A stretch of 64,000 bases of DNA from positions 1 through 64,000 of IMG/VR virus record IMGVR_UViG_2667527770_000005; one strand, given 5' to 3'. The notes beneath the pieces were generated by a model that saw only the letters and a program-made list of their open reading frames with translations, did not search any database and was not told the origin of the DNA. The DNA is from a virus. Its lineage: Duplodnaviria > Heunggongvirae > Uroviricota > Caudoviricetes. The translations under genes were made by a program, and so were the position numbers. Position 1 is the stretch's first letter. The number at the start of each line of letters is the position of its first letter. Below, one piece after another: positions 4,798 through 43,887 of this stretch.

Positions 4798-7785
4798 ATG
4801 AGCTTAAGCGATCAGGTGGTGATGGCCACCAGCATAGAAACGCTGATCGAGCTGCTAAAAAACCTGCCCGATTACGGGCGGGTTTCGTATGTGGTGACAG
4901 CGAAGGGAGACGAGGTAAAAACAGCGTTTGATATCGTCGATGCCTCAGCTCTTTTGGTATCCAATACTCTGGACGGGAAAATTAATCCGGACTATCCCCA
5001 GGAACTTCAGCCGCGCGACCGGACCCGCGCATCCAGCCTTCTTCAGGTCAACCAGATATCCAAGGATTTGCGGCCTGCTCAGCTTACCGATTCCGGTTTA
5101 TCCAGCCATGGCGCGCCGATAATTGGTGAGGACAATGCCGTTGAGTCAGGTAATGGACGGACCATGGGGATCATCAAAGCCTATCAGGACGGCAATGCGG
5201 ATCGGTATCGTGAGTACCTGATTGAACATGCGACCGAATTCGGCATACGACCTGAAAAGGTTGAATCAATGACGGCTCCGGTACTGGTGCGCCGCCGGTT
5301 AACGAAGGTTGACCGTGTTCAGTTTGCCAAGGACTCAAATATTTCTGATCTCCAGGAAATGGCAGCCAGTGAAAAGGCTTTTGTTGATGCCGACAGCATA
5401 ACTCCGGCGATGATGGCGCTGTTTAACCCATCAGAAAGCGGAGATCTGCTTAGCCGCAGTAATGACGCGTTTATTCGCGGATTCATGACGCAAGTTGGTG
5501 CCACACAGGCTGCTGGCCTTGTAACGGAAGATGGGCGACCAACACGACAACTTGTTGACCGTATACAAAACGCGATCTTTGCCAAGGCATATAAGGATGC
5601 GCGCCTGGTAAGAATGGTTGCAGAAGAACCTGATCCGGATATGCGTAATGTTCTGACGGCGCTTAATGCGGCAGCCAATGATTTTGTCCAGATGCAGGCT
5701 TTATCAGGAGAAGCGCACAAGCAGGCTGTGACAACTATCGTTGATGGTATTGAAACAGCGGATAGCCTCGATAAAAAGGCGCTGGCGGCATTGAAAGATG
5801 CGGTAGACCTGGTAAGGCAATCGAAGGAGTCAGGCCAACATATTAACGATGTTATTGCTCAGGGGGATATGTTCAGCGAAACAGCCCCGGAAGTGAAAGC
5901 TCTCGCGTTGTTCATCGTCGCGAATAACCGTAGCGCGAAGCGTATGGCCACCGCCTTTAAATTGATGGCTCAACGTATCAATGATGAGTTACAGCACCAG
6001 GGCCAGGCGCTGGGGGATATGTTTGGCGGTGGTGATGTGTCGTTACAGGATATCCTTCGCCAGGTGTCTCAGGAACTGGAAAACGAAGGCATGCAAGGGA
6101 TATCCGGCGGTCTTTTCGAGTCCGTTTCCGGCGGTAGTTACAACGGCGTTGCTCCATATACCAGTTTGCTATTGCATCGGGCATCCGGCACCAAAGACAT
6201 TATTCATCTGATCAGGCTGCTTTCCCGTACAGATCCCCAGGATGAACAGCTTGTTCAAGTGCTTGCGCATTTTGTTCGAATGCCTGTTGCCGACGTGAAA
6301 AAATGGTGCCGATTATTCGGTATCAGCAATTCGTTACTTCGCGGCTTGTTAAATCACGCATCCTCCCTTGGGCGCGATGGCTTTGACGAGATAGCGCAGG
6401 CGATAAAAAACGGAGATATGCCACCAGCTATTGACTGGTTTTCCATTCGCCCAACCAGGGTGAAAGCATTCCTTAGCGCGGCGCATACGGCATCACCATT
6501 GGCAGAAATGGTTCAGAGGTTGTCGCTCATATTCACAGACCATACCGCGTTGGGTGATCTGACTCTGGACGAGATGAAAGAAGCCTCCATTCAGTGGGCC
6601 GATCAACAAAATGAGGTTAACTCTGACTTCTTGCCAGCATTCAGGAAGGCCGTTAGTAAAGCTGATGATGCCCGTGGAATTCTGAAGGCATTTAAGGCAT
6701 TGCAAAGTCAGGTTAATAAACATGTCGGTGATATCGATGGGGTAACGGCGGAAGGCAGGGATATCCTTAAAGAGCACGGCATAACGCCAGAGTTTATTGA
6801 TGAGATCAGGACTGATATGCAGCGTGAGGTCGTATCGTCACTGCAAATCGTAGCCAGAGCGTTGGCGGATGCTAATCCGAAGAGTGCGGCCATTGTTAAC
6901 CGTGTTATTGGTGATATTGAAGCATCGGAGGGCATGGGGGCGCTGAAACTCTTCCTTTCGCGAGCGTTTAATCCTAACGGCAATATTCTCCCCGGCATTA
7001 TTGGTGAGGCTAAAAAGTATGTCAGCGAAGAAGAACTTGAGCAGCTTGACCAACTACTTAAGCGATTCTCATATAACCCGCAGACACGCTGGCAAATGAA
7101 TCAGCGAAGAATGGGTTCGGTCCACGAGAAAGTGTTATCTGCCATGAACAGTGCGATCGCAAACTCATCCGTATCTGAAGAAAAAGCTCTTGAGTGGGCC
7201 GACTCTTTTATCACGGAAGAAGTGGAAGAAGCCCGCGCTGGACAGAATGGTGGGATAGACCTGCGCAAGGAACTTGCTGATATTTATCGCCTGACCGGCG
7301 GTAAAATTTCGACCTTATCAAAGGTGGTTCACCACCAGGGAAGGGCATATGCAAATCTTAATGGTGTTGTTGCTGTCAATTTGAACGATGAAAATGCAAG
7401 TGCACTGTGGCACGAGCTGGGTCATCATCTTGAGTACAGTAACCCTGGTTTGTTAGAGAAAGCCCGGTCATTCCTGAAGGCCAATGTTGAAGGGGATAAG
7501 CCATCTTTCGTTAATATCGGTGGGCGTGGCAAGCCTGAATGGTGCTTCAGATCTCGATTGAGTAATATTTATATGGCGAAGGTATACCCGCCAGCCTCAG
7601 TAAGTAACACCGGGAAAATTCGGCAGAAATCACCGACTATTTCCAAAACGTCAGCAACGGAAGTATTCTCTATGGCTCTTCAGTTGTATCATGACAAAGA
7701 GGCCGCTGCCGCATCACTGATGAATGGTGACGGATTGCTGGAACTGTTATTAGGTGTGGCAAAGGAGCTAAATAATGCAGATTAA
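4798..7785 (+). CDS. ddrB: DdrB-like large dar operon protein
   Basis: 995-aa ORF following ddrA; assignment by size and synteny. Confidence 0.65.
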   Translation: MSLSDQVVMATSIETLIELLKNLPDYGRVSYVVTAKGDEVKTAFDIVDASALLVSNTLDGKINPDYPQELQPRDRTRASSLLQVNQISKDLRPAQLTDSGLSSHGAPIIGEDNAVESGNGRTMGIIKAYQDGNADRYREYLIEHATEFGIRPEKVESMTAPVLVRRRLTKVDRVQFAKDSNISDLQEMAASEKAFVDADSITPAMMALFNPSESGDLLSRSNDAFIRGFMTQVGATQAAGLVTEDGRPTRQLVDRIQNAIFAKAYKDARLVRMVAEEPDPDMRNVLTALNAAANDFVQMQALSGEAHKQAVTTIVDGIETADSLDKKALAALKDAVDLVRQSKESGQHINDVIAQGDMFSETAPEVKALALFIVANNRSAKRMATAFKLMAQRINDELQHQGQALGDMFGGGDVSLQDILRQVSQELENEGMQGISGGLFESVSGGSYNGVAPYTSLLLHRASGTKDIIHLIRLLSRTDPQDEQLVQVLAHFVRMPVADVKKWCRLFGISNSLLRGLLNHASSLGRDGFDEIAQAIKNGDMPPAIDWFSIRPTRVKAFLSAAHTASPLAEMVQRLSLIFTDHTALGDLTLDEMKEASIQWADQQNEVNSDFLPAFRKAVSKADDARGILKAFKALQSQVNKHVGDIDGVTAEGRDILKEHGITPEFIDEIRTDMQREVVSSLQIVARALADANPKSAAIVNRVIGDIEASEGMGALKLFLSRAFNPNGNILPGIIGEAKKYVSEEELEQLDQLLKRFSYNPQTRWQMNQRRMGSVHEKVLSAMNSAIANSSVSEEKALEWADSFITEEVEEARAGQNGGIDLRKELADIYRLTGGKISTLSKVVHHQGRAYANLNGVVAVNLNDENASALWHELGHHLEYSNPGLLEKARSFLKANVEGDKPSFVNIGGRGKPEWCFRSRLSNIYMAKVYPPASVSNTGKIRQKSPTISKTSATEVFSMALQLYHDKEAAAASLMNGDGLLELLLGVAKELNNAD

Positions 7786-26884: not shown

Positions 26885-26901
26885 AGAATTATTAGAGCAA
26901 T
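26885..26901. promoter_or_regulatory. C1 operator (15/17, reverse) upstream of coi-c1
   Basis: AGAATTATTAGAGCAAT. Confidence 0.6.
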
Positions 26902-26967: not shown

Positions 26968-26984
26968 ATTGCTCTAATAAATTA
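26968..26984. promoter_or_regulatory. C1 operator (16/17, forward) upstream of coi-c1
   Basis: ATTGCTCTAATAAATTA. Confidence 0.7.
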
Positions 26985-37659: not shown

Positions 37660-40600
37660 ATGACTCATCAAACACACACCATTGCTGAATCCAATAACTT
37701 TATCGTTCTTGATAAATACATCAAAGCTGAGCAAACAGGCGACAGCTATCAGAGCGAATCGGACCTGGAACGTGAACTGATTCAGGACCTGCAAAATCAG
37801 GGCTATGAATTTATATCCGTAAAATCACAGTCAGCGATGCTGGCCAACGTTCGGGAACAGCTTCAGAGCCTCAATGGTGTGATGTTTAATGACAGCGAGT
37901 GGCGGCGTTTCACGGAGCAGTATCTGGACAACCCGAGCGATGGCATTCTGGATAAGACCCGTAAAATCCATATCGACTATATTTGCGACTTTATTTTTGA
38001 TGACGAGCGACTTGAGAACATCTATTTGATAGATAAAAAGAATCTCATGCGCAATAAGGTGCAGATTATCCAGCAGTTTGAACAGACGGGTTCTCATGCT
38101 AACCGTTATGACGTCACGATCCTGGTTAATGGCTTACCACTGGTACAAATCGAACTGAAAAAGCGCGGCGTGGCGATTCGTGAGGCTTTCAACCAGATAC
38201 ATCGTTACAGTAAAGAGAGTTTTAACAGCGAAAACTCCCTGTTTAAGTATCTGCAACTGTTTGTCATTTCTAACGGCACCGATACCCGTTATTTTGCCAA
38301 CACAACAAAGCGCGATAAAAACAGTTTTGACTTCACCATGAACTGGGCGAAATCAGACAACACGCTGATTAAAGACCTCAAAGATTTTACCGCTACCTTT
38401 TTCCAGAAACATACTCTGCTTAATGTTCTGGTGAACTACAGCGTTTTTGACAGCAGTCAGACGCTACTGGTGATGCGACCGTACCAGATTGCCGCCACCG
38501 AACGAATCTTATGGAAAATCAACAGCTCCTATAAAGCGAAAAACTGGTCTAACCCCGAAAGCGGTGGCTTTATCTGGCACACTACCGGTTCTGGTAAAAC
38601 ACTGACCAGCTTTAAAGCCGCGCGTCTGGCAACAGAACTGGACTTTATTGATAAAGTCTTCTTCGTGGTCGACAGGAAAGACCTCGATTACCAGACCATG
38701 AAGGAATACCAGCGTTTTTCGCCAGACAGCGTCAACGGCTCGGAAAATACCGCAGGTCTTAAACGAAATCTGGATAAGGACGATAACAAAATTATCGTCA
38801 CCACTATTCAGAAACTTAATAACCTGATGAAAGCAGAAAGCGACCTGCCTGTATACAATCAGCAAGTGGTGTTTATATTTGATGAATGCCACCGCAGCCA
38901 GTTTGGAGAAGCGCAGAAAAACCTGAAGAAGAAATTCAAACGCTATTATCAGTTTGGTTTTACCGGCACACCTATTTTCCCGGAAAACGCTTTAGGCTCA
39001 GAAACGACCGCCAGCGTATTTGGCCGTGAATTGCATTCGTATGTGATTACCGATGCGATTCGAGATGAAAAAGTGCTTAAATTCAAGGTGGACTACAACG
39101 ATGTGCGGCCACAGTTTAAGTCTTTAGAGACAGAAACCGACGAGAAAAAACTGAGTGCGGCTGAAAATCAGCAGGCGTTTCTTCATCCCATGCGTATACA
39201 GGAAATTACGCAATATATTCTGAATAACTTCCGCCAGAAGACCCACCGTACTTTCCCAGGTTCCAAAGGCTTTAATGCCATGCTGGCAGTGAGTAGCGTG
39301 GATGCCGCGAAAGCCTATTACGCGACGTTTAAACGGTTACAAGAGGAAGCAGCTAATAAATCGGCTACCTATAAACCGCTGCGTGTTGCGACAATCTTCT
39401 CCTTTGCCGCCAATGAAGAACAAAATGCCATTGGTGAAATTTCCGATGAAACTTTTGATACCAGCGCAATGGACAGCAGTGCTAAAGAGTTTCTTGACGC
39501 TGCAATTCGTGAGTATAACAGCTATTTTAAAACTAACTTCAGCACCGACGGTAACGGTTTTCAGAACTACTATCGCGATTTAGCCCAACGGGTTAAAAAT
39601 CAGGATATCGATCTGTTAATTGTCGTGGGGATGTTTTTAACTGGCTTCGATGCTCCAACATTGAACACGCTATTCGTCGATAAAAACCTGCGTTTTCACG
39701 GCTTGATGCAGGCATTTTCCCGCACCAACCGTATTTATGATGCAACTAAAACCTTCGGTAATATCGTCACTTTCCGGGATCTGGAACGCTCAACTATTGA
39801 TGCCATAACGCTGTTTGGTGACAAAAACACCAAAAATGTGGTTTTAGAAAAGAGTTATGCAGAGTATATGGAAGGCTTTACTGATGCTGCCACTGGTGAA
39901 GCTAAGCGCGGCTTTATGGCAGTAGTTTCAGAACTGGAACAACGGTTCCCTGACCCTGCCAGTATTGAAAGTGAAAAAGAGAAGAAAGACTTCGTTAAAC
40001 TGTTTGGTGAATACCTGCGTGCCGAGAACATCCTGCAAAACTATGATGAATTTGCCACGCTGAAAGCCCTGCAACAAATCGATCTTAGCGATCCTGTTGC
40101 GGTAGAAAAATTCAAAGCAGAACATTATGTGGATGATGAAAAATTCGCTGAATTGCAAACAATTCGTCTCCCTGCTGATCGCAAGATTCAGGATTATCGT
40201 TCTGCCTATAACGATATTCGCGACTGGCAGCGCCGTGAGAAAGAAGCTGAGAAAAAAGAGAAATCAACCACTGACTGGGATGACGTAGTTTTTGAGGTCG
40301 ATTTGCTGAAGTCTCAGGAAATAAACCTGGATTATATCCTTGGACTGATTTTCGAACACAACAGACAAAATAAAGGCAAGGGCGAAATGATCGAAGAGGT
40401 CAAACGCTTAATTCGTTCAAGCCTAGGGAACCGTGCTAAAGAGGGCCTGGTGGTCGATTTTATTCAGCAAACGAACCTGGATGATTTACCGGACAAAGCC
40501 AGCATCATTGACGCATTCTTTACGTTTGCTCAACGCGAACAGCAACGTGAAGCAGAAGCATTGATAAAAGAAGAAAATCTCAATGAAGATGCAGCAAAAC

Positions 40601-40776
40601 GCTATATTCGCACGTCTTTAAAACGCGAATATGCCACCGAAAATGGCACAGAATTAAACGAAACATTACCAAAACTTAGTCCGTTAAATCCGCAATATAA
40701 AACGAAAAAACAGGCAGTTTTCCAGAAAATCGTCTCGTTTATTGAGAAGTTTAAAGGCGTAGGCGGAAAAATATAG
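37660..40776 (+). CDS. hsdR: type I restriction endonuclease subunit HsdR
   Basis: 1038-aa ORF; PD-(D/E)xK region [13 protein letters not shown], helicase motif I TGSGKT and motif II DECH. Confidence 0.95.
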
Positions 40777-41026: not shown

Positions 41027-41043
41027 AGATTTATTAGAGCAAT
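41027..41043. promoter_or_regulatory. C1 operator (16/17, reverse)
   Basis: AGATTTATTAGAGCAAT. Confidence 0.6.
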
Positions 41044-41549
41044 TATTGCTGATGAAGAAGCGCGTTTTCATACTCCCTGACCATTAACGTAAGCACGCCG
41101 TGACGCCTGAAAACACGCGCCACTTCAATCTTATCTTCCAGCGCGAACGCAATTTTACTTAGACCAATTTTCTTCAGGAGATCAATCTTTGCTGGACCGT
41201 CATTTCTGTCATCGGTGGCAGGACGCATAGATAGCAAAGGCTCAGCCCCATTTGTTACGTGCTTACGCAACCAGGCTCGTGTTTTATCCCTGGCTATCTC
41301 ACAGCGCCCGGTTACAAACCAGAGGGTGTAAATGCCGGACAACTGGCGCACCATATCAATAACTGGAGTGATGGGAGCATCAGTGTCACAGGCAAGGTTA
41401 AACTCGTTCCAGTGCTCTGTTAATGCACCTTTGCCAGGTGGTGGAAGTAAATGCAGCCTGTCTTCCGTTGCCTCTGATATCGTCCCATCAATATCTACTA
41501 TGACGATGTACGGACGTTCCTGGTGTGCGTGTTTATTGAAAATACTCAA
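41043..41549 (-). CDS. HAD-superfamily phosphatase-like protein
   Basis: 168-aa ORF; motif I VIVDIDGTIS (DxDGT); TTG start with GAGGAGGG RBS. Confidence 0.6.
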   Translation of the reverse strand: MSIFNKHAHQERPYIVIVDIDGTISEATEDRLHLLPPPGKGALTEHWNEFNLACDTDAPITPVIDMVRQLSGIYTLWFVTGRCEIARDKTRAWLRKHVTNGAEPLLSMRPATDDRNDGPAKIDLLKKIGLSKIAFALEDKIEVARVFRRHGVLTLMVREYENALLHQQ

Positions 41550-41568
41550 ATGCCCTCCTCATTGGACG

Positions 41569-41600
41569 AAAAAAATGCTGGTGGGAGCACTCCACCAGCA
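41569..41600 (-). terminator. rho-independent terminator after the 420-aa gene
   Basis: 9-bp stem TGCTGGTGG/CCACCAGCA followed on the minus strand by a 7-U tract. Confidence 0.6.
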
Positions 41601-41621
41601 TTAAAAGTGACACTGTAACTA

Positions 41622-42884
41622 TCAGCGAACGTAAATAGTGCCGCCGTTCTCTTTTTCCCATGCATCGCTACGTGCATAGCAAACATCGAGAAGTCTTCTT
41701 GCCGCAGTTTCCTCTAAACCCAATTCGACAACCAACTGCTCATGACGGCGGGTAACCACATCAAACAGGGTATGCAACCCTTTAGTTGCCAGATCATCAA
41801 TGAATTCCGGTTCGAACGGCAGCTCTGCATCTGCCAACATAACCTCTTGCGCCCACTCAACTCGACGGACCAATTCCGGGCGGCGGCTTTCCATCTCTTT
41901 ACAGATCAATTCATGGAAGAACTCTACCCAACCTTCCGGCTGGAACTCGCGGAAAATTGCCAACGGCTGGAAGTTTGGCATCAACCATTCGTTGATTCGG
42001 ATATCAATGGCATAGCCCATGTCGCAGCAGAACTGATAAGCAAAGTCCAGCTTAGAAACGATATAAGGACGCTCGTTATTGAACTCTTTAGGCGATGAGA
42101 TCCCATAAGCCAGGAGGCGCGGGAAGAAGGAGATTTGCCCTAACGTCGGATGAAGTTTGCTTGCAGGGAAACGGCGCTCAGTAATGCCATACATTTCCTT
42201 CTTGAGCGTCGCAAATTTGGCATTCTCATTAACCAGCGCGGTAACCTCTGCTTTTTTATTAGCAAATGCCACGCGCGCTTCGCTTGCATCTTTAATAGTT
42301 TTTTTGAGCTGTTGGTTAAGGTCGGCGACCTGCTTACGCAGTTCCTGTCGCTCGCTTTTAGCTTTGTTATAGCGTTTCTCAAGGTTAAAAGGATCAAGTT
42401 TCATGATCTCTTTATATTGAGATTTTAGCGTTGAAATCTGTGAGTTCCGCAGTTCAACCATCGCGGTCATTTCATTGAGTTTTGTTTCCAGCTCAATGCT
42501 TATACGTTCGGCATTATCAGCACGCTGGTTGGCGTCATGCGTCGCATCATCGATCGCGTCCTGTTGCTGGCGTTTCAAATGTTCAATTTGTAGCTGAAGC
42601 TCTTCAATTTCTTTACCCTTCAGACCGAGATCCAACTGCATATTTTCAGCTGCATCTACCAGGGAGTTATGGCTATCAGCTTCTGCGTTATAAACATCAA
42701 TAAGCTGTGCGTGAAGCATCTCCGCTGACTGAACCGCATTATCAAAAAAACGCGCTGTGAGGTCATCACAACTAACGCGGCGTTGCGCGGCCCGGATGTT
42801 CTGGATAATGGCCGGGATACCGGCATTCAGGACATCAGGGATAGATACATTTTCGATTGATTGGTTTTGTGCTGAAGTGCTCAT
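41622..42884 (-). CDS. coiled-coil protein with uncharacterised C-terminal domain
   Basis: 420-aa ORF; about 200 aa of heptad-rich sequence then a globular C-terminus; translationally coupled to the upstream 72-aa ORF. Confidence 0.55.
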   Translation of the reverse strand: MSTSAQNQSIENVSIPDVLNAGIPAIIQNIRAAQRRVSCDDLTARFFDNAVQSAEMLHAQLIDVYNAEADSHNSLVDAAENMQLDLGLKGKEIEELQLQIEHLKRQQQDAIDDATHDANQRADNAERISIELETKLNEMTAMVELRNSQISTLKSQYKEIMKLDPFNLEKRYNKAKSERQELRKQVADLNQQLKKTIKDASEARVAFANKKAEVTALVNENAKFATLKKEMYGITERRFPASKLHPTLGQISFFPRLLAYGISSPKEFNNERPYIVSKLDFAYQFCCDMGYAIDIRINEWLMPNFQPLAIFREFQPEGWVEFFHELICKEMESRRPELVRRVEWAQEVMLADAELPFEPEFIDDLATKGLHTLFDVVTRRHEQLVVELGLEETAARRLLDVCYARSDAWEKENGGTIYVR

Positions 42885-42885
42885 T

Positions 42886-43104
42886 TCAAAGTTCCGTATT
42901 AGCTTGTGCTTCGGTCATTTTTCCTAAGTATGAAGGAGGAAGGACTACGCAATTTGTATCCAGTCCCTCACCTATGGCAGCCTGTAAAATTCTGGCTAAG
43001 GTGAGTCTCTTGTTGCGATACCTGGTGATGACATGCCTGATACCGCCGGTCGGCGTAACAAAGGCGATCAGCCAGTAGTGATATTTCCGTCGGAATGGCC
43101 ACAT
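42886..43104 (-). CDS. small basic protein, first gene of a C1-controlled two-gene operon
   Basis: 72-aa ORF; ATG 15 bp downstream of a C1 operator. Confidence 0.45.
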   Translation of the reverse strand: MWPFRRKYHYWLIAFVTPTGGIRHVITRYRNKRLTLARILQAAIGEGLDTNCVVLPPSYLGKMTEAQANTEL

Positions 43105-43118
43105 AGTGCACCTTGTAT

Positions 43119-43135
43119 ATTGCTCTAATAAAAAA
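43119..43135. promoter_or_regulatory. C1 operator-like site (14/17, forward)
   Basis: ATTGCTCTAATAAAAAA. Confidence 0.55.
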
Positions 43136-43167
43136 CGTGATGAGTGTACATCACGTTTTAAAAATAT

Positions 43168-43184
43168 GGAATTATTAGAGCAAT
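43168..43184. promoter_or_regulatory. C1 operator-like site (14/17, reverse)
   Basis: GGAATTATTAGAGCAAT; together with 43119-43135 flanks palindrome AAAACGTGATG-N7-CATCACGTTTT. Confidence 0.55.
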
Positions 43185-43185
43185 A

Positions 43186-43887
43186 TTATTCTGATTCTCG
43201 CTCAAAAAATGAGCTGATAAGGGGAAGCCAATCCTCTGACACTTCGCGAGGTCGCGGTTTGCCGTGGAAAAAGATTATTCGGCAGTCTTTTGGTAATGCC
43301 CCATTCCCCCTGGAGTAACGCGCGCTCGCATATTTTGAACCAGGTTCCACAACATCGGCCTTGTAACTTACAAACCATCCTGGATACAGATCCTGAAATG
43401 CTGGTGTATCATCGCCCATAACCTTTCGTAAGAACCCCTGGTCACCCCAACACTCAGTAGTGACACAACGAGAAATCCAACCTTCCGGATCTTGCCAGAA
43501 TGAACTCCAGATATGCGCTTTAACACTATTTGGTATCCACAGGGCACCGCTGCCACGATATTGTGGATGGTAAAAATCCCTAAGCATGGTGAAGCTGGTT
43601 GGTGGATGCTCTAGGATTGGGCGTATATCACCGGCAATAACCGTGTCCAAATCCAGATAGAACAGATCATCGGTTATATCCGGTCGGAACAACTCGATTT
43701 TCGCCCACCAGCCACGGCACTTTTGCCACTGGTTGATCAATGGGACAACTTTGACGCCAGGTACATGTAAACGCTTCAGGTCTGTCAGGCAAATAATTTC
43801 ATAGCCTTTTGGCAGTTGATTAACCAGCCACTGCACATCGGAAGCGTTATAGTCACCACCAGAGCGAAAAACTAAAGCAATCTTCAT
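43186..43887 (-). CDS. putative nucleotide-sugar transferase-like protein (weak)
   Basis: 233-aa ORF with DLD (DxD-like) motif. Confidence 0.4.

Follow-up and report, generated by a model that had tools for sequence, protein, structure and literature searches.

Paired C1 operators, a conserved inter-operator hairpin and candidate roles for PmgR and PmgS in a P1-type phage-plasmid

What does a two-gene unit placed behind a pair of repressor operators do for its phage, and how is it kept apart from the operon that precedes it? The question is raised by a locus at positions 41622-43184 of a 64,000-nucleotide stretch of Caudoviricetes DNA (IMG/VR record IMGVR_UViG_2667527770_000005, positions 1 to 64,000; hereafter the window), which a first-pass annotation made from the sequence alone had described as a two-gene operon under double C1 operator control with no recognisable function. 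Our comparisons identify this locus, with high confidence, as pmgR-pmgS of a P1-type phage-plasmid, an early operon silenced in the lysogen by the C1 repressor. PmgR is one of the few essential gene products of P1, a workhorse phage, that lack a known mechanism. We examined the operators, the region between them and both proteins for what they reveal about control and function.

Identity and operator control of the pmgR-pmgS operon

A 2 kb stretch spanning the locus is 99.3-99.4% identical to phage P1 DNA and 98.6% identical to P7. The 72-aa product is the same as P1 PmgR (AAQ14062) at 72/72 residues and matches phrog_3177 (PmgR) over residues 1-72 (E = 4.3e-47), while the 420-aa product agrees with P1 PmgS at 419/420 residues, the sole change being I2S, and matches phrog_1660 ('PmgS-like head morphogenesis') over residues 1-420 (E = 1.1e-195). 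In the intergenic region a single base differs from P1, just outside the operator OpmgRb, and both operators are identical. The P1 GenBank record (AF234172) annotates OpmgRa, OpmgRb, a predicted sigma-70 promoter PpmgR, pmgR and pmgS, and the P7 record carries the same two operators, Op(sht[a]) and Op(sht[b]), with the genes named shtA and shtB. The gene pair and its operators are already described for P1, and the locus is a correct re-discovery of an annotated unit, not a new system. The comparison with reference P1 that the first-pass annotation had proposed also revealed that PmgR is homologous to a morphogenetic protein of P1 that has been characterised, the very finding that it had named as contradicting its reading; the unit is therefore already known, though not its biochemistry. 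The failure to recognise a function did not hold as a claim of novelty, and it still holds for the biochemical mechanism of both proteins. In a published survey, pmgR and pmgS are among the 21 genes fully conserved across 77 P1-like phage-plasmids (PMC9603915). A literature text search for Op86, the former operator name, found no mention, a preprint on cryo-electron microscopy of the P1 head leaves the pmg genes unmentioned, and PmgR, when scanned against IMG/VR, matched nothing but identical P1 copies.

Both genes lie on the minus strand and were assigned by open reading frame (ORF), PHROG match and identity or near-identity to P1. The first, pmgR (42886-43104; P7 ShtA), encodes the 72-aa protein, whose basic character is confirmed by 10 K/R against 4 D/E residues in 8.3 kDa, and is preceded by a Shine-Dalgarno sequence read as AAGGTG (43109-43114, minus strand), 4 nt upstream of its ATG. 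The second, pmgS (41622-42884; P7 ShtB), encodes the 420-aa protein, for which the predicted coiled coil is borne out by long helices in an AlphaFold2 model. The two genes had been called translationally coupled, and they are indeed tightly spaced, but the ORFs do not overlap and one base separates stop from start (TGAaATG). The operon ends, as had been proposed, at an intrinsic terminator (41567-41602, minus strand) with an 11-bp stem containing 6 G-C pairs (41574-41602), a 7-nt loop and a T7 run; the fold of an 81-nt stretch around it gave -22.7 kcal/mol (z = -3.5). On the other side, the stop codon of an upstream 233-aa gene (43186-43887, minus strand) precedes OpmgRa.

The two C1 operator-like sites noted previously were recovered by pattern matching and coincide with annotated features: OpmgRa (former Op86a; ATTGCTCTAATAATTCC, 43168-43184, minus strand) is a protein_bind feature of the P1 record, OpmgRb (former Op86b; ATTGCTCTAATAAAAAA, 43119-43135, plus strand) is annotated in both P1 and P7, and both are kept in relatives. 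Each has 3 mismatches to the consensus ATTGCTCTAATAAATTT (14/17), all located in the 3' tail, and both contain the exact 13-nt core ATTGCTCTAATAA, which occurs in 6 copies in the window against 0.01 expected. Sites with up to 3 mismatches to the consensus number 15 in the window, against 0.53 expected. The two asymmetric 17-bp operators are oppositely oriented, with their centres 49 bp apart, and their sequences make up an inverted repeat that is perfect over 15 nt (43117-43131 and 43172-43186). Together they span the entire promoter region; OpmgRa overlaps the -35 hexamer predicted in GenBank (TTGCTC, 43178-43183) and the tail of OpmgRb coincides with the T-tract of the hairpin discussed below. 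Judged from these matches, C1 is predicted to bind both sites and to repress the adjacent promoter, and the curated P1 annotation agrees with both this prediction and the earlier proposal of double operator control, stating that OpmgRa 'controls expression of pmgR and pmgS'. Elsewhere in the window, a further inverted pair of C1 matches (26885-26901, minus, and 26968-26984, plus, with ~66 bp between the sites) and an overlapping bivalent-type pair (57106-57122, plus, and 57117-57133, minus) are probably operator clusters already known from P1.

The inter-operator hairpin and the pmgR promoter

To place the intergenic region in a wider context, seven lineages (the window, L089, L090, L091, L004, L088 and L003) were aligned, with PmgS identities ranging from 99% to 27%. 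A gene of 72-75 aa lies directly upstream of the pmgS homologue in 7/7 lineages, down to the lowest PmgS identity of 27%, and an inverted operator-like pair lies upstream of the small gene, again in 7/7. At the most distant pmgR-pmgS locus (L003, 7690-7750), an inverted repeat of 15 bp, formed by AAGATACTAATTTAT and ATAAATTAGTATCTT, takes the place of the C1-type operators. Because these operators differ in sequence while the layout is the same, a repressor of different specificity is implied, which suggests that a heteroimmune repressor may read another sequence within the same architecture.

Between the operators lies what had been reported as an 11-bp perfect palindrome. The arms are confirmed as an 11-nt inverted repeat (43132-43142 with 43149-43159), but they are not contiguous, being separated by a 6-nt spacer. 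On the minus strand the DNA reads AAAACGTGATG-TACACT-CATCACGTTTT (43159-43132), with a T6 run at 43135-43130, and the corresponding RNA, AAAACGUGAUG-UACACU-CAUCACGUUUU followed by UU (43130-43159), folds into an 11-bp stem with 4 G-C pairs at -13.4 kcal/mol (z = -7). The U6 run (43130-43135) comprises the last four bases of the stem plus two bases beyond it. A consensus terminator scan did not call this hairpin, since part of the U-tract is taken up by the stem, whose base consists of A/U pairs.

The hairpin is kept in 6/7 lineages although its sequence changes; across the only 7 sequences compared, both sides have changed in 5/11 pairs, 89.9% of cells in the hairpin columns are paired compared with 38-71% when the partner columns are slid, and these pairing values were reached in only 1-5 of 500 shuffles. 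Five of the hairpins were folded individually, each giving -13 to -16 kcal/mol with z between -4.5 and -7, and a U5-6 tract follows in four of these five (P1, L089, L090 and L091). G-U pairs, moreover, are tolerated on the transcribed strand. Since the sequence is variable but the pairing is kept, an RNA structure fits these observations and a DNA recognition site does not, and the hairpin most likely acts as an intrinsic terminator for the transcript that arrives from ppp-pmgQ. The competing explanation, in which the repeat is instead the binding site of a dimeric protein acting as a second regulator, would account for a perfect 11-bp inverted repeat sitting at a promoter and for L004 and L088, where no U-tract stands behind the repeat and termination may not be the sole role. 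It is hard to reconcile with arms that vary in sequence while retaining two-sided pairing and G-U tolerance, and with the U-tract in most of the folded hairpins, and we therefore consider it improbable. An RNA reading through the whole region could also pair both operator sequences with each other (-30.4 kcal/mol, z = -6).

The hairpin further overlaps the region from which pmgR is presumed to be transcribed. The predicted promoter PpmgR, mapped onto the window from the P1 GenBank annotation (43155-43183, minus strand), combines the -35 TTGCTC with a -10 TAAAAC, and this -10 is not conserved across relatives. Where P1 and the window carry TACACT in the hairpin loop (43143-43148), relatives have the -10-like hexamers TATTAT or TATCAT, and in L089 and L004 the loop hexamer supplies the -10 of the single promoter-like match (TTTACT-16-TATTAT and TTGATT-16-TATTAT, respectively).

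Together, these features point to a mechanism in which the hairpin would halt transcripts coming in from ppp-pmgQ, while the pmgR promoter would fire from within the hairpin, using as its -10 either TAAAAC, just 5' of the stem, or the loop hexamer, as the relatives indicate. With either -10, transcription would begin inside or past the 5' arm, and a pmgR mRNA without this arm would not terminate itself. In the lysogen, C1 bound to both operators would occlude the pmgR promoter, and upon induction or infection the early transcript would yield PmgR and PmgS. The cassette of operator, terminator hairpin with embedded -10, and operator could be a conserved means of insulating the early unit from the upstream operon; taken jointly with the roles of PmgR as a packaging cofactor and PmgS as a tether set out below, we offer this as a tentative proposal. 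Several observations weigh against this reading of the regulation: besides the missing U-tracts of L004 and L088, a promoter consensus scan called no promoter in the intergenic region of the window, and PpmgR is itself a predicted promoter with a weak match to consensus.

Candidate roles of PmgR and PmgS

The genetics of PmgR come from P1. Gonzales et al. (2022) reported that an in-frame pmgR deletion yields <10^2 plaque-forming units (PFU)/ml, that pmgR supplied in trans restores plaques and raises lysogen-forming virions 180-fold, and that deletion lysates contain unjoined tails and incomplete heads with no infectious particles (PMC9024508). The phenotype resembled that of a pmgC deletion and was close to that of the pacA control, which gives proheads and tails; PmgR was absent from the detected virion proteome, and HHpred on PmgR gave nothing (PMC9024508). 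Given the identity of the two copies, we assume that PmgR is likewise needed for the formation of infectious particles in the present element.

Two interpretations of this phenotype have to be weighed. The knockout study proposed that PmgR is a low-copy structural protein, completing the head or forming the neck that joins filled heads to tails. The similarity to the pmgC deletion, which also leaves tails and incomplete heads without virions, is in line with this proposal, as pmgC is adaptor-like by HHpred (PMC9024508), and a protein as small as PmgR could escape mass spectrometry. In our searches, PmgR had nothing above threshold in Pfam, NCBIfam and PADLOC scans and no match to PDB sequences at E <= 10, and it displayed no fold or sequence similarity to known neck, adaptor or head-completion proteins. 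An analogy to the T4 portal-assembly chaperone gp40 was dropped for lack of detectable similarity, no dedicated test having been made.

An exhaustive profile search with PmgR recovered only 24 representative clusters, all of them stand-alone proteins of 62-99 aa with two motifs in common, KxH-aromatic-aromatic at the N-terminal end and SYLGxMT at the C-terminal end. Two homologues (P0059 and P0060) carry a hydrophobic C-terminal extension of ~20 residues resembling a transmembrane tail anchor, which is hard to square with a virion neck protein. In the inspected contigs, P1-like and otherwise phage-plasmid-like, PmgR homologues are found in early-type regions and never in morphogenesis modules. 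In L092, there is an overlap between the pmgR-like gene and a gene resembling that of the late promoter activator, lpa, after which come pacA-like, pacB-like and c1-like repressor genes; in L093, the order is a pmgR-like gene, an apparent pmgS remnant and, further on, lpa and pacAB; and in L095, L096 and L097, the pmgR-like gene sits amid runs of small early-type genes, with ParA and S24-repressor genes nearby in L095 and L096. The adjacency of pmgR and lpa may be due solely to the loss of accessory genes, as every gene between pmgR and lpa is dispensable in the P1 knockout list. The L093 remnant, in a P1-like contig from Xenorhabdus, is a 33-aa ORF after the pmgR homologue (6213-6314). It begins with MTERSATNQNS, similar to MSTSAQNQS at the N-terminus of PmgS, and is apparently what is left of a deleted pmgS. 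In P1 itself, the only promoter annotated for pmgR is the C1-controlled sigma-70 promoter, with no late promoter.

Early regulation, the lack of detection in virions, the early-region setting of homologues, the membrane anchor carried by two of them, the absence of a neck-protein fold and the pacA-like phenotype, none of them decisive, lead us to favour a different reading. On this view PmgR would act in the cytoplasm and outside the virion, as a cofactor in prohead or portal maturation or in packaging, rendering heads able to package DNA or to join tails. We give this reading about an even chance, and regard the structural neck protein as a realistic possibility towards which we do not lean. 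Two points speak against this account of PmgR: at 8.3 kDa, absence from mass spectrometry is weak evidence, and a CRISPR interference screen scored both pmgR and pmgS as non-essential, so low expression of pmgR may suffice, its authors listing pmgR among the essential genes that were missed (PMC10695390). More speculatively, PmgR may be the founder of a small but widespread, early, basic, 62-99-aa SYLGxMT family of phage-plasmid proteins, sometimes membrane-anchored, that would ready T4-type proheads for DNA packaging from the cytoplasm, with PmgS as a DNA-tethering partner; this fuller picture is possible but doubtful. If it is true, candidate actions of PmgR would be portal assembly, pac cleavage or the packaging step itself.

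A third interpretation arises from the P7 record, which describes ShtA as 'sheath structure or assembly' and ShtB as 'sheath contraction', and thereby places both proteins in tail sheath structure and contraction. These labels disagree with the roles considered above, but pmgR deletion lysates hold complete tails, a pmgS deletion plates normally, both proteins are absent from the virion proteome, and neither has structural similarity to sheath or baseplate proteins. The sheath function is thus largely refuted by the knockout phenotypes, and we consider it very unlikely.

PmgS has a different standing. Its deletion leaves plating normal, the gene being dispensable for plaques (PMC9024508), and its homologues form 29 clusters, with only 3 species representatives in a GTDB scan. 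PmgS is dispensable in the laboratory, yet strictly conserved among P1-like elements; pmgR is a core early-region gene, and pmgS an accessory one. The AlphaFold2 model of PmgS (predicted local distance difference test [pLDDT] score 72) displays long helices at residues 42-160 and 166-232, interrupted at a conserved LDP motif, and the overall layout comprises a coiled coil (~42-232), a beta-rich and helical middle part (~233-350) and a C-terminal tandem helix-hairpin-helix domain, (HhH)2 (~352-405); residues 260-278 fall below a pLDDT of 50. The first-pass annotation had left the whole C-terminal part unassigned, which continues to apply to the central portion (~233-350) and no longer to the extreme C-terminus.

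The C-terminal ~60 residues are assigned to a RAD51-N-terminal-type (HhH)2 domain. In support of this assignment, all top specific Foldseek matches of the C-terminus are RAD51, RadA or NusA-AR2, with the five helices of the (HhH)2 fold present, and P0029, which is homologous to PmgS over its full length (27% identity, E = 2e-32), exceeds the Pfam HHH_5 gathering cut-off of 27 bits with a score of 32.0 at the aligned position. The assignment is also favoured by weak profile matches of PmgS to the C-terminal domain of RNA polymerase alpha and to the N-terminal domain of RAD51. Against the assignment stand the Foldseek E-values, which are only 0.05-1, and the Pfam, NCBIfam and PADLOC scans, in which PmgS itself had nothing above threshold and did not reach the HHH_5 cut-off. 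The best PDB sequence match to PmgS, the P22 tail needle gp26 (E = 0.0011), was rejected as a coiled-coil match only, and sub-threshold matches to TPR, LPP, SMC, Rad50, LmuB and JetC were set aside as coiled-coil noise. Read at face value, the hidden Markov model matches to SMC, Rad50, LmuB and JetC (residues ~55-234) would place PmgS among SMC/Rad50-like proteins or among defence-related ones akin to LmuB or JetC, but they reach 10-19 bits against cut-offs of 300-1000, are limited to the coiled-coil segment and concern a protein with neither ATPase head nor hinge, leaving this explanation with hardly any probability. PmgS is probably an accessory coiled-coil dimer whose (HhH)2 domain makes contact with DNA or with some other partner that binds HhH motifs. 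The early-region family of PmgR, the (HhH)2 domain of PmgS and the predicted promoter nested in a conserved hairpin narrow the range of experiments that would assign a function to PmgR.

Neighbouring genes and comparison with known systems

Upstream of pmgR-pmgS lie ppp, encoding a lambda-type Ser/Thr phosphatase, and pmgQ, glycosyltransferase-like by PHROG, and downstream lies pap, encoding a PNKP-type phosphatase. The pap gene (41043-41549, minus strand) has a TTG start 72 nt past the pmgS stop and ~17 nt past the T-run of the operon's strong terminator, and no promoter of its own is annotated; it may be expressed via read-through of the terminator or from an unrecognised promoter. In a preprint on the transcriptome of a Delta-hfq strain, pap was grouped with pmgS and not with pmgR. 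Beside pap, an Op88-like C1 operator is found at 41027-41043.

Beyond this point, the window departs from P1. Between 33000 and 41043, a type I restriction-modification locus, with HsdR (1038 aa) at 37660-40776 (plus strand) and hsdS and hsdM beyond, replaces the P1 pmgT-pmgV, upfMNO and hot block, and only 20% of this stretch matches P1 itself. The arrangement is common to the P1-like phages vB_EcoM-673R5 and phi456 (78% cover, 96-97% identity), and the pmgT-hot interval is a hypervariable region of P1-like phage-plasmids (PMC9603915).

Compared with known systems, the locus is the same as P1 pmgR-pmgS (AF234172, AF234173), sharing its neighbours ppp and pmgQ upstream and pap downstream, and the two elements diverge downstream of pap, where P1 carries the pmgT-hot block and the element described here the restriction-modification locus. 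The shtA-shtB operon of P7 is orthologous, with 98.6% DNA identity and the same two operators, and only its functional label differs. At the protein level, the (HhH)2 domain (HHH_5) of PmgS corresponds to that of RAD51, RadA and the RAD51 paralogues, with related folds in NusA AR2 and in the C-terminal domain of RNA polymerase alpha; in the recombinases, however, it is N-terminal, whereas in PmgS it is C-terminal, follows a coiled coil and comes without a recombinase core. At the level of control, the neighbouring P1 units governed by O26 (former Op82), Oppp (former Op83) and OpmgT (former Op88) use the same 17-bp asymmetric operator over a sigma-70 promoter, and the window holds several sites of this kind. 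In these units a single monovalent operator is annotated, whereas pmgR has two separated, inverted monovalent operators that bracket a hairpin and a promoter.

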